Below are positions 9,741 through 43,490 of a DNA stretch of 64,000 bases, one piece after another (the first letter of the stretch is position 1; each line of letters opens with the position of its first letter). The notes beneath the pieces were generated by a model, which was not told the origin of the DNA, made no database searches, and worked only from the letters and a program-made list of their open reading frames with translations. The stretch comes from Dehalococcoidia bacterium (GTDB lineage Bacteria > Chloroflexota > Dehalococcoidia > Lucifugimonadales > Australimonadaceae). The stretch spans positions 17,455 through 81,454 of the forward strand of contig DAOUJK010000041.1 in NCBI GenBank assembly GCA_034422795.1, in the 5' to 3' direction. The position numbers and the translations under genes are program-made.

Positions 9741-10124
9741 CTACTGGTCCGGCGCCATCGTGCGTATGCCGTAGCGCCGGATGTACGCGTCCCGTGTGAC
9801 GAGGACGAGCCCCTCTGCCTGTGCCTGCGCAACGAGCATCCGGTCGAACGGGTCCCGGTGGTGCGGGGGCAGCATCGCCGCCTGCTCCGCGTGGAACAGG
9901 GACAGCGGGAGGGGGATAAACCCCGTACGTTCTACGATTCCTGTCAGCCCGTACGGGGCTGGCAGCGTCCCCTTCTCCCGCTTAACGGCGAGTTCCCAGA
10001 TGCTGACTGCGCTGACGAATACCTCATTCTCGCGGGAGGCGATGGCTTCTCGCGCAATCATTCCCAATCGTGGGAGGTCGCTCAAAGCCCAGAGCAGCGT
10101 ATGCGAATCGAGGAGTAGTCTCAT
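9741..10124 (-). CDS. vapC: PIN-domain toxin, VapC family
   Basis: MRLLLDSHTLLWAL...DPFDRMLVAQA... is the typical PIN signature. 4-nt overlap with the upstream antitoxin. Confidence 0.85.
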   Translation of the reverse strand: MRLLLDSHTLLWALSDLPRLGMIAREAIASRENEVFVSAVSIWELAVKREKGTLPAPYGLTGIVERTGFIPLPLSLFHAEQAAMLPPHHRDPFDRMLVAQAQAEGLVLVTRDAYIRRYGIRTMAPDQ

Positions 10125-10387
10125 TGGAGGAGAGGGTCGTCAGGATTGTCGGTGTAGAACAGTTCATTGATTTCCTCGTCGGTCCACTCGAGCAGGTCCC
10201 AGTTCGGCTCGGGCCAGCCCTGCTCCTTCAGGATGCCTGGTTTGCGTGGCTCGCGCTGCTTTTCCTGGTAGGGGAGCAGTTCCAGGTACGGCTTTCCGGC
10301 CCTGGCGATGATGACGCGCTCGCCCTGGCAGGCGAGTTCGCCGAGGCGCGAGAGTTGGGACTTCGCTTCATGCATGTTGACCTGCAT
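10121..10387 (-). CDS. Phd/YefM-type antitoxin (cognate to the adjacent VapC)
   Basis: MQVNMHEAKSQLSRLGELACQGERVIIARAGKPYLELLP matches the prevent-host-death family N-terminus. Confidence 0.8.
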   Translation of the reverse strand: MQVNMHEAKSQLSRLGELACQGERVIIARAGKPYLELLPYQEKQREPRKPGILKEQGWPEPNWDLLEWTDEEINELFYTDNPDDPLLQ

Positions 10388-10389
10388 CG

Positions 10390-10671
10390 CTACGCTCCGG
10401 ACGTCCGCTGCTCGTCTGCTGGTTCATCGTCCCAGGGAGGTCCGATGAAGTCCTCGCCGAACATCTCGACCAGCTCTTGGTAGGTGAACTTGACGTATTC
10501 CCCGAACTGCCCTTCGTACCCCCCCAACCGGCGCGGCTCCCGCTGCTCCTTGTACGGCATCAGTTCCAGGTACGGCTTGCCGGCCCTGGCGATGATGATG
10601 CGCTCGCCCTGGCAGGCGAGTTCGCCGAGGCGCGAGAGCTGGGACTTGGCTTCATGCATGTTGACCTGCAT
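10390..10671 (-). CDS. Second Phd/YefM-type antitoxin paralogue with no toxin of its own
   Basis: First 37 codons are near-identical to the 10121-10387 gene (111-nt repeat, 4 mismatches). The C-terminal half is unrelated. Confidence 0.7.
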   Translation of the reverse strand: MQVNMHEAKSQLSRLGELACQGERIIIARAGKPYLELMPYKEQREPRRLGGYEGQFGEYVKFTYQELVEMFGEDFIGPPWDDEPADEQRTSGA

Positions 10672-17129: not shown

Positions 17130-18431
17130 CTATTGGCCTGTTTCAAACTGTTCCTTGCGCTTGACCCATTGGAAACCACCGCCCTTCGTTATAACGGCTA
17201 CATCTGTTGGCCCTCCAACAGATTCTTCCTCACGTGTCACTCGCCGTCTGAGAGAAGTGAGGCTCACCAGAGTCTCTGCCATCTCAGCGAGCCGTTCCCT
17301 AGGAAGATATTCTACCATGCTCATGATATCATCGTACAGTCTGTTCTTCCGTCTGTCTGTAAAGTCATCCACAACAGAATTTACAATAACCGAATGTTGA
17401 GCGAAGAGACCTTCCTGTAATGTGGCAAGGTTTGCCTGTTGATTTGAAACGCGTAGACCTTCAATGACAAGGCCGAGATACTTATCTAACGTCACACTGA
17501 GTAGCTCTTCGAAATAGGTATCGAATTCTGGATGTGTTCCCCAGAGAAACTGGTCAATCGTGTCTGTTTGTGCGAAGGGAAGTATTTGAACACGGGATTC
17601 ATAGGAGAGAGATTCTTTCCGGATTACCCTGTATATCAGCACACCTTGTACCAGCCCTTTGCATTGTAATTCAATTAGGCTAGGGAATATCTCATCTTGG
17701 CCGAATCCTGCGATGACTATGCCTGATCCGAAAGCATCCTCGTAAGCAATATCGTCGTGGAACCCACACACCGCTCTGATTGCGATAGAGTTCAAGCGAC
17801 GGACGAGGGTGGGAGTCAATCTTCTCTCGAACACTTCCTTACGAGCCAGACTCAGTTCTGCTCGAAGAGAACGACGCATCCTTTCTTCGAAGCCGACTGG
17901 TGCGTCCGAATGAATTCTCATCGATTTCGATTCGTCGTAGTACTCTGCAATAACTACACCGGTTACTCGTGCTAGGGTTTCTTCTTGGAACTGTGAGAAA
18001 CTCTTCCTACGTGCTTCTGCAGAATTTTTCCTGATTTCTTCTTGGAATCGGGCTTGAATTGTAGATTCTATGTCATTGAATAATTCATAGATCATAGACT
18101 CTAAGTCATGTTTCTCATGCTTTGAACTCACATATCGAGCGATATCTTCACGCAAGAACCTGCAGAAATCATCCGCGTATTCGGCGACGCTCCCGAAGTG
18201 ACTGTCCTTCGCTGACCTGCCATATTCCTTGATGATGGTCTCCCACGGAATATCGATGAAGGCAGCATCTCCGTAGGTCATGACACCGACCGGAGCACCA
18301 TCCGCCAACTGTAACAGTTTGTCATCTGACGTGAATATCTTGGAGGAACCATCAGCGTAGGTCAGGGTAGTAGCACTGTCTGCGGCTAGAGCGACCGCTT
18401 CGAGGTTCATGATGGCCACTTCTGCAGTCAT
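17130..18431 (-). CDS. Proteasome-beta/HslV-like N-terminal-nucleophile (Thr) hydrolase homologue with two large insertions (433 aa)
   Basis: M-TAEVAIMNLEAVALAADS...SSKIFT...GIVIAGFGQDEIFPSLIELQ...SVGGPTDVAVITKGGGF mirrors proteasome-beta motifs (Thr1, Asp17, Lys~33, C-terminal GGxxDVAVIT). Low-GC codon usage. Confidence 0.6.
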   Translation of the reverse strand: MTAEVAIMNLEAVALAADSATTLTYADGSSKIFTSDDKLLQLADGAPVGVMTYGDAAFIDIPWETIIKEYGRSAKDSHFGSVAEYADDFCRFLREDIARYVSSKHEKHDLESMIYELFNDIESTIQARFQEEIRKNSAEARRKSFSQFQEETLARVTGVVIAEYYDESKSMRIHSDAPVGFEERMRRSLRAELSLARKEVFERRLTPTLVRRLNSIAIRAVCGFHDDIAYEDAFGSGIVIAGFGQDEIFPSLIELQCKGLVQGVLIYRVIRKESLSYESRVQILPFAQTDTIDQFLWGTHPEFDTYFEELLSVTLDKYLGLVIEGLRVSNQQANLATLQEGLFAQHSVIVNSVVDDFTDRRKNRLYDDIMSMVEYLPRERLAEMAETLVSLTSLRRRVTREEESVGGPTDVAVITKGGGFQWVKRKEQFETGQ

Positions 18432-33164: not shown

Positions 33165-34190
33165 ATGATCATCGACTCCCATGGTCACTATACCACCGCG
33201 CCTGCCGGCGTGCAGATATTCCGCGCCACCCAGATCACCTTCATGGGCGCCCCGGTGAAGCACCCCGTCAACGTCTCCGACGACGAGATACGCGCCTCGC
33301 TGGAGAACGGCCAGCTCAAACTGCAGAACGAGCGCGGCACGGACGTCGCCATCTTCTCCCCCCGCGCCTCGTGGATGGGCCACCACTTCGGCGGCGAGCT
33401 CATCAGCCGCTACTGGACCGAGATCAACAACGACATCATCAAGCGCGTGTGCGACATCTACCCGGACCGCTTCATCGGCGCGTGCTCGTTGCCGCAGTCG
33501 CCCGGCGTCCCGCCGGAGCGCGGCGTCGTCCAGGAGCTGGAGCGCGCCGTGAACGATCTGGGCTTCGTCGGCTGCAACCTCAACCCGGACCCGTCCGGCG
33601 GCTACTGGACCGACCCGCCGCTTGGCGACCGCTACTGGTACCCGCTCTACGAGAAGATGGTGGAGCTGGACGTGCCCGCGATGATCCACGGCTCCGGCAC
33701 CTGCAACCCCGCGTTCACTACCACCGGCTCCCACTACATGAACGTGGACAACACCGGCTTCGTGCAGCTGATGGACTCCAACATCTTCCAGGACTTCCCC
33801 GGCATCAGGTTCATCCTGCCGCACGGGGGCGGCGCCATCCCTTTCCAGTACGCGCGTTTCAAGGGGCTGAGCATCATGGCGAAGCGCGAGCCGTTCGACG
33901 AGTTCCTCAGCCGGCTCTACTTCGACACCGCCATCTACAACCAGGCCGCGACGGAGTTCCTGATCAAGACGATCGGTGTGGACAACGTGCTGTTCGCCTC
34001 CGAGATGATCGGCGGCGTGCAGGCCATCGACCCGGACACCGGGCGCTGGTACGACGACACGAAGCCGTACATCGACGGCATCGACTGGCTGACCGAGGAG
34101 GACCGCTACAAGCTCTTCCACGGCAACGTGCTGAATGCCTACCCGCGCGCCAAGCCCTACATCGAGAAGATCGAGGCAGGCAAGGCATAG
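33165..34190 (+). CDS. Amidohydrolase-2 family protein (ACMSD/LigW-type decarboxylase/hydratase-like)
   Basis: MIIDSHGHY metal-binding start, ...MIHGSG..., ...ILPHGGGAIP..., ...NVLFASE... AGGAG RBS before 33165. Confidence 0.8.
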   Translation: MIIDSHGHYTTAPAGVQIFRATQITFMGAPVKHPVNVSDDEIRASLENGQLKLQNERGTDVAIFSPRASWMGHHFGGELISRYWTEINNDIIKRVCDIYPDRFIGACSLPQSPGVPPERGVVQELERAVNDLGFVGCNLNPDPSGGYWTDPPLGDRYWYPLYEKMVELDVPAMIHGSGTCNPAFTTTGSHYMNVDNTGFVQLMDSNIFQDFPGIRFILPHGGGAIPFQYARFKGLSIMAKREPFDEFLSRLYFDTAIYNQAATEFLIKTIGVDNVLFASEMIGGVQAIDPDTGRWYDDTKPYIDGIDWLTEEDRYKLFHGNVLNAYPRAKPYIEKIEAGKA

Positions 34191-35580: not shown

Positions 35581-35684
35581 CCGCGCTTTAGCGCGCAACC
35601 CCGCAGCCCCACCTCTCCCCCTGGGAGAGAGCCTGCCCTGAGCCTGCCGAAGGGTCGCCGCGCGGCAGCGTGGCGGGTGAGGGT
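35581..35684 (+). repeat. ~104-nt composite REP block (families C/B), left copy
   Basis: CGCGCTTTAGCGCGCAACC..CCTCTCCCCCTGGGAGAGAGCCTGCCCTGAGCCTGCCGAAGGGTCGCCGCGCGGCAGCGTGGCGGGTGAGGG. Near-identical copy at 36319-36422. Confidence 0.8.
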
Positions 35685-35739
35685 TGTCCCGGACGCAGTG
35701 CGTAGCACCCGTGTACCCGCGCCAGCGCCTCCCTGTGGG

Positions 35740-36123
35740 CTAAGCCGCTTCCTTCACCGTGATGGCGACGACTCCCTGCGATTCCCGCGTCTTGTAGAGG
35801 TCGGGCCGCATCGTCGGCGGGAACGCGGTGCGCACCCGCTGCGTGTCCACCGCCGTCACGACGAACGGCCTCCGCCACTTGAACAGCACGCCGGACTCGA
35901 AGGCGCGCCCATCCCCTCCGGCGAGTCGCTCGTGCATACCGTCTCTCGCGGCATTCGTCAGGCTCGCTCCGATGCTGCTGAACGCTGCGCCCAGACGCGC
36001 CAGCTGCCCGCACGTATGGCGCGCGTCCGGCTCCGCCAGTAGCACGGCCAGCCGCTCGAGCGCGTCGCCGGGCAGGAACGCCCCCAGTTCCGTCACAGGG
36101 TTGATGTTCGGGTTCGCAGGCAT
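35740..36123 (-). CDS. Hypothetical protein (127 aa), possibly phage-derived
   Basis: GGAGGAGG RBS before the ATG at 36123. No family recognised with confidence. Bracketed by the 104-nt direct repeats. Confidence 0.5.
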   Translation of the reverse strand: MPANPNINPVTELGAFLPGDALERLAVLLAEPDARHTCGQLARLGAAFSSIGASLTNAARDGMHERLAGGDGRAFESGVLFKWRRPFVVTAVDTQRVRTAFPPTMRPDLYKTRESQGVVAITVKEAA

Positions 36124-36318
36124 AACAGACCTCCTCCACGGTTGTTCGTGCGCCCACTCTACGGCGAACGGTGGACGACCTCGCAAGGCCCGCGTGTCAC
36201 ATTCTGCTTCGCGGACCTGTCATGCTGAGTGCAGCCGAAGACGGAGTCCGCTTCAGCGCGCGGCATCCTTGGGGCGGGTGTAACGGACGGAACGCCGGGT
36301 CCGTCGTTCCTGTGCAGG

Positions 36319-36422
36319 CCCGCGCTTTAGGGCGCAACCTCGCAGCACCCCTCTCCCCTTGGGAGAGAGCCTGCCCTGAGCCTGCCGAAGGGTCGCCGCG
36401 CGGCAGCGTGGCGGGTGAGGGT
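36319..36422 (+). repeat. ~104-nt composite REP block, right copy
   Basis: Same orientation as, and by eye near-identical to, 35581-35684 (a few mismatches/indels). Confidence 0.8.
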
Positions 36423-36486
36423 GCCCCGCGACACGGAGCGCAGGCGCGTATACTGCGGGCGACGCGCAGCACGACGAAAGGGATAT

Positions 36487-37470
36487 ATGGCCACACTCGT
36501 AGGAACGTTCTTCCACTCCCACGGGGGCACGACGTCGCTCCCGCCCGAGCTATGGGTCGAGCGGCGCGCCGCCCGACCCATCCGTGACGATGTTCCGGTC
36601 GAGACGCTGGAGCAGAACGTTGCCAAGGCCAACCGCACGCACAAGGGCTTCCGCGTTCTGCGCGAGCGCATCGCCGAACTCAGCCCCGACGTGCTCGTCA
36701 TCTTCAGCGACGACCAGCTGGAGTGCTTCGACTTCAATAACTACCCTGCGTTCGCGGTCTACGTCGGCGACAGCTACGCGAAGTCGCCGCGCGAGCCGCG
36801 CACCCCGGAGATCGGACGCCACGCCGAGCCCGGCTACCGCTTCCCCGGCCACCCGGAGCTTGCGGTGCACCTGCTCTCCGGCGTCATGCAGCGCGGCTTC
36901 GACCCCGCCTTCTGCATGGACATGCCGAAGCCGGACCGCGGCCTCGCGGGCGGCGTCATCCGTTCCGTCGAGGAGCTGACCGACTTCTCCCTGCCATCCG
37001 TGCCCATCATGATGAACCTCTACTTCGCTCCGCAGGTGAGCGGCTTGCGCAGCTACCAGTTCGGCAAGGCCGTGCGCGAGGCGCTGGACGACGCGCCCGC
37101 CGACCTCCGCGTTGCCGTCGCGGCCTCGGGCGGACTCTGGCACACGCCGGGGATGCCGGGCGCGTGGCTGAACGAGGAGTTCGACCGCGCGATACTGGCC
37201 CGCCTTGAAGAGGGCGATGCCCGCGGCATGGCCGAGTACTTCGACGCCTACGTCATCCCGGAGGACGACACGAGCCAGGATGCCGCCTACCGGGGGCGCG
37301 TCAGCACCGGCATGCCGTCGCCGGGCGGCCCTGCGTTCGGCACGCGCGAGACTTGCGCGTGGATAGCGGCAGCCGCCGTCACCGAGGGCCGCCCCACCAC
37401 CATCGTCGACTACATCGAGGTCTACGCCTCCCCCGTCGGCAACGCCTTCGCCTACTGCGACGACGTGTGA
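36487..37470 (+). CDS. Class III extradiol dioxygenase, LigB family (paralogue 3)
   Basis: MATLVGTFFHSHGGTTSLPPELW...VAASGGLWHTPG. Ends ...VYASPVGNAFAYCDDV*. Confidence 0.8.
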   Translation: MATLVGTFFHSHGGTTSLPPELWVERRAARPIRDDVPVETLEQNVAKANRTHKGFRVLRERIAELSPDVLVIFSDDQLECFDFNNYPAFAVYVGDSYAKSPREPRTPEIGRHAEPGYRFPGHPELAVHLLSGVMQRGFDPAFCMDMPKPDRGLAGGVIRSVEELTDFSLPSVPIMMNLYFAPQVSGLRSYQFGKAVREALDDAPADLRVAVAASGGLWHTPGMPGAWLNEEFDRAILARLEEGDARGMAEYFDAYVIPEDDTSQDAAYRGRVSTGMPSPGGPAFGTRETCAWIAAAAVTEGRPTTIVDYIEVYASPVGNAFAYCDDV

Positions 37471-37592
37471 GAGGGGCGGGCTGATGCTGGAGTACAAGCG
37501 GGAGTTCCGTGCCTCGATCGATGCCTACTTGGACGGGTACACGGAGCTCGGCATCGAGCCGGTCGCGCCGACCGCAGCGCCCGTTGCGCCAT

Positions 37593-37662
37593 AGACATCG
37601 GCTGCATCCAGGTCCACGCCTCGCCCGTCAGCAACGTCTTCGCCTGCTGCGACGACGTGTGA
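37593..37662 (+). pseudogene. Detached copy 2 of the LigB-3 3' tail (fragment)
   Basis: Reads ..IDIGCIQVHASPVSNVFACCDDV* with its own TGA at 37660-37662. 5 mismatches over the last 51 nt versus 37420-37470. Confidence 0.75.
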
Positions 37663-38710
37663 GGGAGAGGTACTCGACAGTCGGTTAGTAAAGACCATAA
37701 AGTGTCACAGACGATTCTGATGCGACCAGGTACTGGAGGATACGTGAGTAGAACCTTCACGGTAACCGAGAAAGGAAACTTGGATAGGATTGCACTTATG
37801 CTGGCGACCCTGCGGGCGCTACATAGGCTCGGTGGCTCTGGTTCACTCCATGTAATCTACGAAACGGTACTCGTATTGGAAGAAGTACCACCCGAAGAGG
37901 CGTACATACTCGGTAGCAATGGCAAACTGAAGCTCAGATATGGATTAGATTGGTCTCGGACTATGTTGAAGCATGTGGGACTAGTGACAAACCCTAGGCA
38001 TGGTATCTGGGAGTTAACTTATGCAGGAAGAACCGAGTACACGTATGCAGACTTGAAGACAATATGGGAAATACATAAGAAAGGCGGCGATATATCCAAA
38101 GCGTACCCTCTTCAGAATGAAGAAGCGCCCTCAAATACCGCGCCAATAGCTGAGATAATCTTGGAAGAAGAAAATTCCACTGAACCGGAAGGACTGCTGA
38201 CGTCTATTCAAATGCAGGCGAAGATTGCTCAGATCGGTGCAACAATGCACTTTGACATCTGGGTGCCTCCTTCCGACAGAAGCCAAGTCAAAGGATATGT
38301 TGCGGTCGATTTGCACGGCAGGTTTGTCGAAGGAGAGTTGCCTCTCGGCTACAACAAAGAAACACTAAGCACCGTACGCCAGATTGATGTGCTCTGGCTT
38401 CAGGGTAACGCAATAGCAAGGGCATTTGAAATTGAGCATACTACTGCCGTCTACTCAGGCCTTCTACGCATGGCAGACCTGCTAGCGTTACAACCCAATA
38501 TCAATATCAAGTTACATATAGTTGCGCCAGATGAAAGGGAAAAGAAAGTGCTGTATGAAATCGGGCGCCCTGCTTTTTCTTCTTTGAACTTGCCTGCAAG
38601 TTGTTCATTTCTTTCTTACACTAAGATATGTGAATTTGCAGAACAATCCAATTTGGAATTTATGTCACATGCCGCTATCAGCAAATATGAAGTGAAGGCG
38701 AACGGCTGAT
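37663..38710 (+). mobile_element. Low-GC single-gene cassette (Mrr-like nuclease) between a LigB-tail copy and a Rieske-tail copy
   Basis: Hand-counted lines are about 48-50% GC versus about 70% in the flanks. Bounded exactly by the gene-tail fragments. No recombinase. Confidence 0.6.
37702..38709 (+). CDS. Mrr-like restriction protein: N-terminal Mrr_N winged helix plus C-terminal PD-(D/E)xK-like nuclease domain
   Basis: LRALHRLGGSGSLHVIYETV...RYGLDWSRTMLKHVGLVTNPRHGIWELTYAG resembles Mrr_N. The C-terminus has D-VLW..AFEIEHTT. Start uncertain (GTG 37702 or ATG 37720). Confidence 0.6.
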   Translation: MSQTILMRPGTGGYVSRTFTVTEKGNLDRIALMLATLRALHRLGGSGSLHVIYETVLVLEEVPPEEAYILGSNGKLKLRYGLDWSRTMLKHVGLVTNPRHGIWELTYAGRTEYTYADLKTIWEIHKKGGDISKAYPLQNEEAPSNTAPIAEIILEEENSTEPEGLLTSIQMQAKIAQIGATMHFDIWVPPSDRSQVKGYVAVDLHGRFVEGELPLGYNKETLSTVRQIDVLWLQGNAIARAFEIEHTTAVYSGLLRMADLLALQPNINIKLHIVAPDEREKKVLYEIGRPAFSSLNLPASCSFLSYTKICEFAEQSNLEFMSHAAISKYEVKANG

Positions 38711-38793
38711 CCCCTCTACTCCGGGAACACCGCCACGCTCTCGTCGCTCTTGGGCTGTAGCGCTGGTGGCCGTGGTAGATCATCCGCGTCTGG
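38709..38793 (-). pseudogene. Detached diverged copy of the Rieske-3 3' tail (fragment)
   Basis: Aligns to 40376-40463 at about 85% identity with a 1-nt deletion. Reads ..QTRMIYHGHQRYSPRA/DESVAVFPE* with TAG (CTA at 38716-38718). Confidence 0.75.
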
Positions 38794-38843
38794 TCTACGC
38801 CTCGCCGGTCGGCAATGCCTTCGCCTGCTGCGACGACGCGTGA
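38793..38843 (+). pseudogene. Detached copy 3 of the LigB-3 3' tail (fragment), fused directly to the Rieske-tail fragment
   Basis: GTCTACGCCTCGCCGGTCGGCAATGCCTTCGCCTGCTGCGACGACGCGTGA encodes VYASPVGNAFACCDDA*. 5/51 mismatches to 37420-37470. Confidence 0.75.
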
Positions 38844-38865
38844 GGGATAGGTTATACTCCGTTCG

Positions 38866-40371
38866 ATGCAGTCCCACTCCGGTCTTTTCTCGTCCCTCGC
38901 GTTGCTGCTGGCCGCTGTAGCTGCCTGCACGTCGTCGACACCAACGCCTGTCCCGACTGCAACACCGGCTCCAACGCCGACGCTGGCGCCCACGCCAACC
39001 GCCCTCATCCTGATGCCTGCACCGACCGCCGCGCCTGCTCCCACTCCAACCCCGATGCTGATCGTGGCGCCCACTCTCGTTCCAGCGCCTACCGCTGCGC
39101 CGGTAGAGCTATCGGCGGCGGACGCCGAAGCGCTGCTCCATGAGAACGCAGCCAGGGTGCGTGACGAGTTCATCCGCAACGCGGAGAACTGCCGCTTCAC
39201 CTACTCGTATGCCGGGCTGTCAGCAGTTCGTGAAGGCCGGGAAGGCTGGGAAGTAGAGAGGCATATGACTTTGCGGGATGGGCGGACGGTATCCTCAGGC
39301 AGCTCTACCAGCAGTAGCCACGGAGGCGTCGACGCTGCCCGGATACCGGAATACGGTCCTGATAATGACTACGACCCGGTTGAATGGTTCGGCGCGGAAT
39401 ACCAGAGTCTTGTTGACGGTGCCGATCGCGGGACCTATGCGGGCCGCTCAACCTACTTCGGGCAACCGGCCCTGCGTTATGAGACGCGTGTTGAACGTGA
39501 AGACGCGGATATGCCTGCATCGGCTCTCATCGTTACCGACCACCTGGTAGAGAACCCCTATGTCTTCATAGAGAACGAATACAGTGCCAACGCAGACGGG
39601 ACCCGGCAACTGGAGCGGCAGTTCATGCGGTATCGGTTCGAGCTGACACACTGCACTGCCGGTGGGGGGTACGATGCCGCCGCCGTTGCGGTGTGGAGAG
39701 CACTTGCAGAGAAGGCAGCAGACGTCTACACGTCGATACGCGATGGCCTCCTCGAAGGTTGTGAGATGACGTTCAGGGAGGATCACTACATGTGGTTGGA
39801 TTTCCGAGGGGACCCATTACCGGGTGGTTCTCTCGAAACGGAGGTACGTTACGTCATCGCTCGCAATGACGGAGGCTCCTGGCAGGTCACCCCGCAAGGG
39901 GTGGCTCGACAGGGAGAGCGTATCGTGGGCAGAACGACGCCTGAGGGGATATGGATGGTGCTGGACCCCTGGACTGGCGAATGGACAGAGCAACCTCCTG
40001 TCACTGAAGCCTATGAAGACCCCTTCGAGTTTCTCTCGGAGCACATCGCGGGCCTCGGTTATGCCAGGTTCGTAGACGAGGAAGGCCTCCCCCTGTCCAC
40101 TGATGACGGTCAACACTACCACTACCCCTACGCAGGTAAGACAGAGGTCGATGGGCGTCCGGCCGTACGGTATGAGAAGGTATCAACGGACAGCTATGCC
40201 ATAGATCCGGAAGATGGTCTCCGGCTATACGTTGAAGCGCATGAGTTCCTGGAAGACAACCCATTGCTGTTCCGCCGGAGCGACTATCTCCTGCTTCCCG
40301 ACGGCGAGATTCAGCCTTACGCGGAGAGCAGGGTCGAGGAGTTGGGACTGCAGGACTGCCCCGGCGCCTAG
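38866..40371 (+). CDS. Lipoprotein with a long Pro/Thr/Ala linker; otherwise hypothetical (501 aa)
   Basis: Lipobox AVAAC. A ~60-aa PT-rich low-complexity linker. Intermediate GC. Its TAG shares the CTAG tetranucleotide with the convergent Rieske stop. Confidence 0.65.
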   Translation: MQSHSGLFSSLALLLAAVAACTSSTPTPVPTATPAPTPTLAPTPTALILMPAPTAAPAPTPTPMLIVAPTLVPAPTAAPVELSAADAEALLHENAARVRDEFIRNAENCRFTYSYAGLSAVREGREGWEVERHMTLRDGRTVSSGSSTSSSHGGVDAARIPEYGPDNDYDPVEWFGAEYQSLVDGADRGTYAGRSTYFGQPALRYETRVEREDADMPASALIVTDHLVENPYVFIENEYSANADGTRQLERQFMRYRFELTHCTAGGGYDAAAVAVWRALAEKAADVYTSIRDGLLEGCEMTFREDHYMWLDFRGDPLPGGSLETEVRYVIARNDGGSWQVTPQGVARQGERIVGRTTPEGIWMVLDPWTGEWTEQPPVTEAYEDPFEFLSEHIAGLGYARFVDEEGLPLSTDDGQHYHYPYAGKTEVDGRPAVRYEKVSTDSYAIDPEDGLRLYVEAHEFLEDNPLLFRRSDYLLLPDGEIQPYAESRVEELGLQDCPGA

Positions 40372-41636
40372 CCAGGCATCCCGCCCTGCTCCGGGAACAT
40401 CGCCACGATCTCGTCGATGGCGGGGTTGTAGCGCTGGTGCCCGTAGTAGATCATCCGCGCCTGGTTGCGGTCCGGCGTGTAGTACACCTTCTCCTGGGTC
40501 ATCTCGATGCACTGGTTCGTCGCGGGGTCGCGGAACACGTTCATCGGGTCGCCCCCGTCCGCGACCGTCGCCATCGCCTCGTTCAGCATCCGGCGCAGCA
40601 TGATGACGCCCGTGTCGGACTCGCCGAGCTTCTCGCGCGTCCGGTCGGCGATGGGCGTCTGTGTCACCCACGCCATGAAGTCCTGCACCAGCGGCAGCTC
40701 CACGTTCAGCTCCCCGTTCGCGTCGTACAGCGGGATCTCGTAGTACGGCACCCGCTCCTGCGGCGGCACCTCCACCTCCGGCGGGAACTGGTAGCGCGTG
40801 TACACGACGTGCAGCGTGTTCTCGTCGTCGACGGGCACGCGGATCTGGAACTCCGTGCTCGTCGTGCCCGTGGTGGAGCGGAGGATGTTGGGGAACACCC
40901 ACGGGTGGCCGATCCTCCAGATGTCGTCCTCCTCGGAGCTCCCCTCGACGATGCGCTTTTTGAAGACGCCGTTGGCGAACTGCTGGAAGCCGATGCGCTG
41001 GTGGGGGCGCATCATCGCCTTGCGCCACGGCGGCACCTTCTCGCCCGTCTTCTGCGCGAGGTACCAGCCGTAGACGCCGTGCAGCCACTCCGCGTGGACG
41101 GGGTCGGCTGAGTTCTCCTGGCACTGGAGCCAGTTGCAGGGGAGCATCGTGAAGCCGATGTCGCGCCACGCGTGGTCGGTCACGAACAGGTCCCAGCGCG
41201 GGACGAGCGGCGCCGGCAGTGGCCCCATGTAGGCGAACAGCAGTCCGCCGAGCTCCTCGACCGGGTACGCCGTGACGCGCACCTTCTCCTTGAATCGCCC
41301 GTCCGGGTGGACCGTCTCTTCGAACGGCTGCTCGATGCACTGGCCGGTCTCGTCCATCATCCACCCGTGGTACATGCAGCGCAGCCCGTGCTCCTCGGGG
41401 ATGCCATACGACAGGTCGACGCGCCGGTGCGGGCAGAAGCGGTCGACCAGCCCCAGCGTCCCTGACTTGTCCTTGTAGAGGACGAGGTCCTCGCCCAACA
41501 GTCGGACGGCCTTCGTGGGACGCTCGTCCATCTCCGCGGCTGCCGCGATGGGGTGCCAGTAGCGGCGCATGAGTTCGCCCATCGGCGTCCCGGCGCCGAC
41601 CTGCGTGAGCCGTTCGTTCTCCTGCTGCGTGAGCAT
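40368..41636 (-). CDS. Rieske [2Fe-2S] ring-hydroxylating oxygenase alpha subunit (paralogue 3)
   Basis: CPHRRVDLSYGIPEEHGLRCMYHGW Rieske motif. GGAGGGAGGGAG RBS before the ATG at 41636. N-terminus nearly identical to paralogue 1. Confidence 0.85.
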   Translation of the reverse strand: MLTQQENERLTQVGAGTPMGELMRRYWHPIAAAAEMDERPTKAVRLLGEDLVLYKDKSGTLGLVDRFCPHRRVDLSYGIPEEHGLRCMYHGWMMDETGQCIEQPFEETVHPDGRFKEKVRVTAYPVEELGGLLFAYMGPLPAPLVPRWDLFVTDHAWRDIGFTMLPCNWLQCQENSADPVHAEWLHGVYGWYLAQKTGEKVPPWRKAMMRPHQRIGFQQFANGVFKKRIVEGSSEEDDIWRIGHPWVFPNILRSTTGTTSTEFQIRVPVDDENTLHVVYTRYQFPPEVEVPPQERVPYYEIPLYDANGELNVELPLVQDFMAWVTQTPIADRTREKLGESDTGVIMLRRMLNEAMATVADGGDPMNVFRDPATNQCIEMTQEKVYYTPDRNQARMIYYGHQRYNPAIDEIVAMFPEQGGMPG

Positions 41637-43072: not shown

Positions 43073-43297
43073 CTACAGCTGGTCGAACTCGTCCGGCGTA
43101 AGCCCGGCCTGCCGCAGTATGCTGCGCAGGGTGCCGACGGCTACTTCCCTGTGGCGTGGGACGATTGTCGTTCGCAGGCCGCCGTCGCTCTCTCTGGCGA
43201 ACTTGACGTGGCTGCCTCGCTGGGTAGATTCCACGAAACCGGCTGCTGTGAGCTTGCGGGCGACCTCCCGGTAGGGCAGCGGTCTAACCGGCGGCAA
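43073..43297 (-). CDS. hicA: HicA-family mRNA interferase toxin
   Basis: YREVARKLTAAGFVESTQRGSHVKFARE...TIVPRH.EVAVGTLRSILRQAGL is the typical HicA/YcfA signature. Confidence 0.85.
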   Translation of the reverse strand: MPPVRPLPYREVARKLTAAGFVESTQRGSHVKFARESDGGLRTTIVPRHREVAVGTLRSILRQAGLTPDEFDQL

Positions 43298-43490
43298 CCT
43301 CTACCTCGATGCGGCGAAGGTCAGGCGCAACCGAAGGGACAGGCGGCTCGAAATGGAGTTCCAGTGCCTCACGCAGGTTCGCGAGCGCCTCATCAACCGA
43401 CTCCCCCTGGCTGGCGACGTCGGCTTCTAAGGCTTGGGCGACGTACCACTGCCCCTCCTTCCAGACGCTCGCCGTGAACACTTGCTTCAT
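43284..43490 (-). CDS. hicB: HicB-family antitoxin (short form)
   Basis: FTASVWKEGQWYVAQALEADVASQGESVDEALANLREALELHFE is the HicB N-terminal fold pattern. 14-nt overlap with hicA. Confidence 0.8.
   Translation of the reverse strand: MKQVFTASVWKEGQWYVAQALEADVASQGESVDEALANLREALELHFEPPVPSVAPDLRRIEVEVAAG

Follow-up and report, generated by a model that had tools for sequence, protein, structure and literature searches.

Studies of defence islands and hotspots mostly infer that turnover without an integrase proceeds by homologous recombination in the flanking core genes; to our knowledge, the physical traces of single exchange events at such hotspots are rarely seen. Here we describe a locus at which traces of this kind are preserved, namely the interval between two convergent genes, LigB-3 and Rieske-3, in a 64,000-nucleotide (nt) stretch of DNA (hereafter the window; positions 17,455 to 81,454 of contig DAOUJK010000041.1, assembly GCA_034422795.1) from a Dehalococcoidia bacterium. 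Relics of both flanking genes mark where alleles were added, and related genomes display single-cargo alleles, the stacked products and their decay. We read the locus, at a probability of roughly 0.6, as a hotspot without mobile-element genes whose contents are exchanged by homologous recombination and to which rare illegitimate joins add further alleles. The lineage is uncultured and represented by metagenome-assembled genomes (MAGs), and we know of little work on its gene-transfer mechanisms.

The minimal mobile elements of Neisseria, one of the closest counterparts, are reportedly the subject of work by Saunders and Snyder in 2002 and by Snyder in 2007. Such elements have been described (PMC3787668), as have hotspots lacking mobile-element genes (Oliveira 2017, PMC5635113), and in both cases exchange is put down to homologous recombination in the flanking core genes. 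As in these loci, the content of the present interval varies between the same conserved genes, mobility genes are lacking, and the cargo is rich in restriction or defence genes and toxin–antitoxin (TA) modules. The described loci, however, replace their alleles singly, whereas here alleles have been added serially, with relics of both flanking genes left as internal seams, and these seams are common to genomes that differ in the contents of their slots. The displacement of 3′ ends at Rhs-type loci is said to have been treated by Jackson in 2009. Displacement arrays are documented for Rhs, contact-dependent inhibition (CDI) and type VI secretion system (T6SS) loci (Poole 2011, PMC3150448; Kirchberger 2017, PMC5361080), where, as here, the 3′ end of an incoming module pushes the old 3′ end and the downstream gene along, resulting in a stack of orphans. 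The displaced ends in those arrays are polymorphic toxin domains with immunity genes; those described here come from ordinary catabolic genes, are invariant in the functional copies and have no function of their own; the cargos bear no relation to LigB, and displacement has occurred from both sides.

The view of the preliminary description of this DNA, that the arrangement is not a described system, was too strong, since hotspots (PMC5635113), minimal mobile elements (PMC3787668) and displacement arrays (PMC5361080) have all been described. The locus belongs with the homologous-recombination hotspots that lack mobile-element genes, its added trait being an additive, two-sided displacement of 3′ ends. 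We know of no earlier description of stacking in which both flanking genes leave relics and these then remain as internal boundaries that genomes share.

The convergent LigB-3 and Rieske-3 genes enclose an interval of 2.9 kb, which was compared with about 30 related Dehalococcoidia loci (denoted by L numbers); those with LigB at least 93% identical are termed the close clade, and distant members have LigB at 81–85%. The interval is arranged in three slots and two seams, as follows.

36487..37470, plus strand: LigB-3, the left flanking core gene, a LigB-family extradiol ring-cleavage dioxygenase (Pfam LigB, E 4e-24)
37471..37594, plus strand: slot 1, a decayed HicAB TA cassette (from alignment to hicA-hicB of L031 and hicB of L005)
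37598..37675, plus strand: seam 1, a displaced relic of the LigB tail (its final 66 nt, the stop and a further ~12 nt) that abuts the hicB stop
37702..38709, plus strand: slot 2, a solitary restriction-type nuclease, Mrr_N + NmeDI_C (Pfam Mrr_N; PADLOC REase_II; precomputed PF27126 NmeDI_C)
38709..38794, minus strand: left half of seam 2, a displaced Rieske tail relic (last ~81–88 nt and stop), frameshifted
38792..38852, plus strand: right half of seam 2, a displaced relic of the LigB tail (its final 53 nt, the stop and a further ~8 nt)
38866..40371, plus strand: slot 3, a predicted lipoprotein with signal peptide, Cys and Pro/Thr-rich linker, without a Pfam family
40368..41636, minus strand: Rieske-3, the right flanking core gene, a Rieske [2Fe-2S] oxygenase with a LigXa_C-like domain (Pfam)

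Within the window, blastn aligns the LigB-3 tail (37406-37471) with copies at 37598-37663 (88% over 66 nt, E 9e-18) and 38792-38844 (91% over 53 nt, E 1.6e-14). Between themselves, these copies match at 88.5% over 61 nt, as far as ~8 nt beyond the stop. The Rieske-3 tail (40378-40465) is copied at 38709-38794 (84% over 88 nt, E 2e-19), with two small gaps rather than the 1-nt deletion first reported, and this copy shares a 3-nt overlap, GGT (38792-38794), with the third LigB tail. Profile searches with nhmmer find the same copies. The preliminary description had thus located the two recurrences of the LigB-3 tail correctly to within a few nt, and that of the Rieske-3 tail is likewise borne out; with E-values from 1e-13 to 2e-19 for all tail repeats, the fragments are significantly similar to the gene tails. 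Its architecture of units bounded by the ends of both flanking genes, stacked between convergent LigB and Rieske, also stands, as does its placement of the cargo open reading frames (ORFs), which fill the spaces between tail copies almost exactly; the stop of the Mrr-type nuclease gene at 38709 lies 6 nt before the CTA stop of the Rieske copy. Full-length genes lie upstream of the relics, of which there are two for LigB-3 and one for Rieske-3.

LigB-3 and Rieske-3 are the only matches of the tail copies. The other LigB and Rieske genes of the window share 28–41% protein identity with them and show no DNA match, which rules out a paralogous origin of the tails. Comparison of the window with itself reveals no other repeats of this type, and stacking as a general habit of the genome was rejected, the TA insertions at 9741-10671 and 43073-43490 being without copies of flanking-gene tails. 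Orthologues of LigB-3 at 94–96% amino acid identity are found in Dehalococcoidia MAGs, and some database sources name its homologues 3-O-methylgallate 3,4-dioxygenase. Rieske-3 has gained a 6-residue C-terminal extension (40368-40385; …MFPEQGGMPG at the terminus) because its ancestral stop was lost (CTA>CTG); the new stop and the TAG of the lipoprotein gene on the other strand overlap as the palindrome CTAG. The ancestral stop is still present in the Rieske relic, at 38716-38718.

An assembly artefact is unlikely. ENA scaffold NGUY21-1_SAMN17524321_METAG-scaffold_230 (L111) is 99.8% identical to the window over the 13 kb compared, with all 24 differences at 33437-34034, and positions 37442-40470 recur with 100% identity in a Logan contig (L112) that was assembled separately from SRR13587050. 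The stretch holding every difference from the ENA scaffold comprises 600 nt of an amidohydrolase gene and indicates a strain-variable or recombined patch. The longest exact word common to any two tail copies is 20 nt, which makes a repeat-induced mis-join implausible. A chimera of co-existing strain variants carrying different single-cargo alleles might be suspected from the short-read metagenomic source, from the occurrence of related species with other alleles (L117 and L122; NGUY21-1 SAMN17524323, SRR13587048) among the material of the same study and from the presence of that strain-variable patch. Such an origin is nonetheless scarcely credible: three assemblies agree, including the Logan contig with its 3029 identical nt across every seam; a de Bruijn graph would contain no repeat at which to mis-join; decayed and frameshifted relic tails would not arise from chimerism; and similar seams occur in other assemblies: L005, whose title describes a chromosome-level genome assembly, L031, L127 and the pair L129/L130, which come from different, independent samples.

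The convergent LigB–Rieske pair is found in a Dehalococcoidia MAG clade with LigB at least 81% identical, and the interval between the genes is a hypervariable hotspot. Its size ranges from empty to 8 kb, occupied intervals measuring 0.5–8 kb. Among the distant members, the genes of L006 and L010 are 3–33 nt apart with nothing between them, L007 holds GmrSD with a guanine–cytosine (GC) content of 47%, and L027 holds IS21, HerA-like and DruA genes. Alternative cargo in related genomes, which the preliminary description had suggested looking for, is abundant in the close clade, where at least 15 distinct interval states were found: lipoprotein variants (L002, L003, L018, L126, L116-L123), HigBA (L001), an insert of 537 nt that lacks an evident ORF (L004), NB-ARC/STAND NTPase genes (L117, L122), a 371-amino-acid (aa) NmeDI_C nuclease (L124, L125), and stacks of several cargos (the window, L005, L031, L127, L128 and L129/L130). 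Several cargos recur: higBA is common to L001, L031, L127 and L129, hicB to the window, L005, L031, L127, L128 and L129, and the NmeDI_C nuclease adjoins the Rieske stop in the window and in L124/L125.

The locus was said at the outset to be recombinase-less, and no recombinase gene was found nearby in Pfam and PADLOC annotation of the cargos or Pfam annotation of parts of the window and of the alleles. More specifically, no integrase or transposase domain appears in Pfam annotation of window positions 1-20 kb and 31.7-64 kb, nor in the close alleles, the IS21 of the distant L027 being the sole mobility-gene exception among the loci.

Alignment of the slots to these alleles resolves the cargo. 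The 120-bp remnant with a 35-codon ORF noted previously does contain an ORF, but alignment to L031 and L005 identifies it as an internally deleted hicB: hicA is reduced to ~12 nt of its 3′ end right after the LigB stop, and hicB (37484-37594, 36 codons, no Pfam match) has lost 39 codons between CAAG repeats. In L031, an intact hicA (Pfam HicA_toxin) and hicB lie right behind LigB.

The slot 2 nuclease, whose start is placed at 37744 by gene callers, has a GC content of ~47% versus ~68% in the flanks. Its closest homologue beyond the assemblies of this sample is 54% identical, and no homologue above 54% identity was found that would reveal its source. The 371-aa NmeDI_C protein that is the sole cargo of L124/L125 is its allelic counterpart. 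The idea that the Mrr gene had replaced a lipoprotein gene and kept its last two codons, GGCTGA, was rejected because the L124 nuclease ends alike (…AQG and …ANG before the stops) and at the same distance of 6–7 nt from the Rieske stop. L128 (8153-8730) has kept no more of an L124-type nuclease than its N-terminal half (~190 aa, 53–55% identical to that of L124); a deletion has removed the NmeDI_C catalytic domain, and the lipoprotein upstream region follows directly on the remnant.

The slot 3 lipoprotein gene is the most frequent resident of the interval. Across relatives it shows 65–80% nt identity, versus 90–96% for the flanking genes, which suggests diversifying selection on a putative surface protein. 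Homologues occur in L002, L003, L005, L018, L031, L116-L123, L126, L128 and L129, and the gene may be long, short, split (L126) or, after duplication, fused (L005, 941 aa). A scan of the interval for promoters and terminators gave nothing beyond the expectation from shuffled sequence.

The picture of units bounded by both tails is correct because the stacked units align to single-cargo alleles. Window positions 38347-38794 align with L124 over 453 nt (68%, E 1e-37), in a match that runs from inside the nuclease gene into the real Rieske tail of L124, the nuclease stop lying 6–7 nt from the Rieske stop in both. From the other side, window positions 38792-40668 are collinear with L002/L003, in the order real LigB tail, lipoprotein, Rieske; the unit formed by the third LigB tail and the lipoprotein gene has a further match in L126. 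The same correspondence holds in L031, where an internal segment consisting of LigB tail, HigA and Rieske tail aligns to the whole interval of L001. For every unit of the stack, other genomes thus provide a corresponding allele of this interval, the hicAB unit matching L031.

Tail relics are present in 7 of the 15 close-clade alleles and fall into the following classes, with LigB positions counted back from the stop.

LigB relic of 102 nt, right after the hicB stop: the window (with a 32-nt deletion), L005, L031
LigB relic at -53: the window
LigB relic at -59/-51, beside an element resembling repetitive extragenic palindromic sequences (REP-like): L129, L005, L127 (tandem duplicate in L127, period 183 nt)
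LigB relic at -44: L128
Rieske relic of ~60 nt, downstream of higA: L001, L031, L127, L129
Rieske relic of ~71 nt, beside a gene for a 228-aa membrane protein: L127, L129
Rieske relic of ~81 nt: the window, L031/L129

These relics show a mirror symmetry, in that hicAB, oriented as LigB, is followed by a LigB relic, and higBA, oriented as Rieske, by a Rieske relic. Seams are common to genomes by descent while the contents of the slots differ. The seam between hicB and the LigB relic has Mrr as its right neighbour in the window, HigA in L031 and the lipoprotein gene in L005; the ~81-nt Rieske relic comes after the nuclease gene in the window and after a truncated higB in L031/L129. L128 has the order of the window, with a hicB remnant, a LigB relic, a nuclease-type gene and a lipoprotein-type gene. 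The inner end of the Rieske relic, …C(C/T)TGGT, falls at the same nucleotide in the window and in L031/L129, which calls for one of three explanations: an ancestral seam with subsequent gene conversion and slot-by-slot replacement across relics that serve as homology arms, a breakpoint hotspot, or coincidence (~5%, given four seam classes).

Direct repeats of a target-gene 3′ end around cargo are the classic signature of 3′-end integration, and all three LigB tails of the window contain the 11-mer CTGCGACGACG. The seams could accordingly be pictured as the remains of integrase-bearing elements that once inserted in tandem at the LigB and/or Rieske 3′ ends and then lost their integrases. The tandem accretion of integrative elements, and the cis-mobilizable elements (CIMEs) that it involves, are reportedly discussed by Bellanger in 2011. 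Integrase-less CIMEs flanked by att sites are common (PMC7563491), and the locus shares with them an integrase-less cargo between direct repeats of a target-gene 3′ end and the tandem stacking of units. The present repeats differ from those of CIMEs in deriving from the tails of two genes, in having variable boundaries and in having repeat-free single-gene counterparts. We regard this origin as very unlikely: no integrase was found in ~25 alleles or in window positions 1-20 kb and 31.7-64 kb, nor any integrase-bearing element at the same site in the ~30 sampled loci; two different genes supply the relics; the boundaries vary (LigB -102, -59/-51, -53 and -44; Rieske +60, +71 and +81); and the cassettes are single genes of 0.3–1.5 kb whose counterparts lie between intact genes without repeats (L124, L002, L003, L117). 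The recurrence of a LigB breakpoint at -51/-53 was considered as a sign of site specificity and rejected. The -51 copies of L005 and L127 represent one lineage with a 183-nt tandem amplification, and the -51 breakpoint is not evidence of site specificity because L129 shows that the copy originally reached at least -59.

Chromosomal integrons, too, consist of serial, tight, single-gene cassettes with spacers of ~60–140 nt and are rich in TA and defence genes, but here there is no IntI and the spacers are homologous to the flanking genes and not to attC. No Phage_integrase or IntI domain was found in any annotated gene around the locus, and an Rfam scan returned distant tRNAs only. An attC-like or otherwise structured recombination site was rejected, since the DNA of the seams and gene tails folds no better than shuffled sequences (z -0.11 and -1.09 for the seams, -1.1 to +1.8 overall), in an analysis of hairpins that did not look for R′/R″ motifs.

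The junctions themselves carry short microhomologies: GGT at 38792-38794, ATAG at the boundary of hicB with the LigB relic, and CAAG at the internal deletion of hicB. They adjoin tracts homologous to alleles of other genomes. Homology-facilitated illegitimate recombination was modelled (PMC2884548) and proposed for arrays of T6SS immunity genes and Rhs orphans (PMC5361080); as cited in these two papers, it goes back to de Vries & Wackernagel 2002, Prudhomme 2002 and Meier & Wackernagel 2003. In common with that process, the junctions here combine one homologous anchor with one microhomology join, foreign DNA being gained without a recombinase. The process has been shown experimentally in competent bacteria, whereas here it is deduced from the anatomy of the junctions, and here the join lies inside the end of the homologous gene, hence the duplicated tail. 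We infer that the joins arose by homology-facilitated illegitimate recombination during import.

In the mechanism that we favour, the contents of the interval (lipoproteins, TA modules, defence nucleases and a STAND NTPase among them) would circulate between related genomes as alternative alleles, and an allele would usually be swapped through double homologous recombination in LigB and Rieske. Rarely, an illegitimate join within the terminal part of a flanking gene, at 3–4 nt of microhomology, would close one end of the exchange. As a gene end is brought in with the new DNA, the result would be addition with a stranded tail instead of replacement: the functional gene would stay intact, and either the resident or the incoming tail would be left between cargos. 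Repeats of this event from either side could have stacked the three alleles of the window, that is hicAB (now decayed), the NmeDI_C/Mrr_N nuclease and the lipoprotein. A single event would suffice for the Rieske/LigB seam, in which a donor extending from 53 nt before the LigB stop into Rieske entered by a homologous crossover in the Rieske body and an illegitimate join at ~+85 of the resident Rieske; the mirror event would be equivalent.

The arrangement of seam 2 can be reached by other routes. The exact order of LigB tail, Mrr, Rieske tail/LigB tail and lipoprotein is predicted by a Campbell-type integration, in which a unit of LigB tail, cargo and Rieske tail would be circularised by an illegitimate join and inserted by a single homologous crossover in the LigB or Rieske tail (50–100 nt) of a resident allele. 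The LigB relics at 37598-37663 and 38792-38844 indeed form direct repeats around the Mrr gene and the Rieske relic, and they have in common a derived TAC>TGC change as well as a similarity that continues past the stop. This route is nevertheless improbable, as it demands two rare events (circularisation, and a crossover in at most 53 nt) where one-sided recombination demands one, and as it leaves unexplained the partnerless seams, in which a Rieske relic is joined to unrelated sequence (L031/L129), a LigB relic follows hicB or a Rieske relic follows higA. The circular intermediate raised in the preliminary description gains nothing specific from the data, being one of several routes to an identical junction.

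Tandem duplication is evident in L127, which has two tandem copies (183 nt) of a REP-like element with the LigB tail from -51 to the stop. L005 has two diverged lipoprotein copies in series, and the Rieske relic of L031 has lineage-specific variants of its own gene tail, with 91% identity. Such features would fit an in-situ tandem duplication from LigB -53 to Rieske +85 by unequal sister-strand exchange, one slot being overwritten later by homologous recombination. We consider this unlikely for the window, where slots 2 and 3 match different single-cargo alleles of other genomes; the route also requires two steps, large perfect tandem repeats are unstable, and an intermediate with the same cargo on both sides of a Rieske/LigB seam is seen in no sampled genome.

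Several points weigh against the favoured mechanism of exchange with occasional illegitimate joins. The co-terminal Rieske relics of the window and L031/L129 are identical at 63 of 77 positions and are no closer to one another than to the gene tails. A 200-nt identity scan of the flanks is star-like, at 90–96%, with a nearest neighbour that shifts between scan windows. Arms of 53–102 nt are short for efficient RecA-dependent exchange, and the order of events cannot be reconstructed.

The divergence of the tails had originally been taken, at 10–15%, to imply donors from different lineages. Since the changes hit invariant positions and the Rieske copy contains a frameshift, the divergence is largely decay after the joins and does not by itself prove foreign donors. 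All 19 functional LigB genes of the close clade agree in their last 22 residues, and 7 of 20 codons (37598-37663) and 2 of 16 codons (38792-38844) are changed in the window relics relative to this invariant C-terminus. Judged by these changes and the frameshift of the Rieske relic, the relics are free of LigB/Rieske constraint, decaying and non-coding. Every tail copy is 80–94% identical to all clade members and none is clearly closest to one genome; the assignment of donors from tail identities has no resolution and was dropped.

Under the favoured mechanism, the relics would persist as short homology arms (53–102 nt) and, because they persist, the contents of single slots could turn over separately. 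It is possible, if doubtful, that the relics have become working parts in this sense, dividing the hotspot into slots in which any single-cargo allele of the community could be captured or swapped individually through ordinary homologous recombination, with the neighbouring cargo left in place. If so, the identical end of the Rieske relic and the hicB/LigB-relic seam with its three right neighbours would be conserved slot boundaries, and the locus a simple, recombinase-independent cassette system and a functional analogue of an integron array, one that could be kept for accumulating defence and TA alleles that are otherwise mutually exclusive. The retention of both cargos, especially of addictive TA modules, may have been selected: it would plausibly be of advantage to acquire a nuclease without giving up a TA module or a lipoprotein that is of use. 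Through the proposed additions, alleles that exclude one another (nucleases, TA modules, a fast-evolving lipoprotein and a STAND NTPase) may be accumulated instead of exchanged, a concrete route that is open to testing.

Other features of the window lie outside the interval. Directly beyond the stop of LigB-2 (9734), the minus strand carries at 9741-10671 a gene for a PIN (VapC-type) toxin and, behind it, two Phd/YefM-type antitoxin genes in tandem; the 5′ 144 nt of these are 91% identical (10244-10387 versus 10531-10671), representing a duplicated antitoxin. The convergent genes for isochorismatase and an AMP-binding protein enclose a second HicA/HicB-like (DUF7387) TA pair (minus strand, 43073-43490). 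In a comparison among 13 relatives, L031 alone shares it with the window (~80% identical), and its site is a small indel hotspot without tail relics.

GC-rich REP-like repeats, which form families, occupy several intergenic positions (35581-35705/36320-36443; 26644-26741/34315-34402/42212-42310; 60856-60918/62236-62355), with the sequence pattern CCCCTCTCCC...GGGAGAGG...GGGTGAGGG. Related elements adjoin the LigB-tail relics in L005, L127, L128 and L129. The sequence upstream in L005, which shows a weak similarity to a Rieske relic (p ~0.003–0.01), is better read as a REP-like element. The stretch from an alcohol-dehydrogenase-like gene to LigB-3 (35588-36480) is also variable, with a small minus-strand ORF between REP-like repeats in some relatives only (L001, L116-L119, L121). 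Finally, a large AAA_25 (RecA/RepA-like ATPase) ORF at 60748-62670, beside secA, has an N-terminal Cys-rich region and internal REP-like repeats and is possibly a mobile-element remnant.

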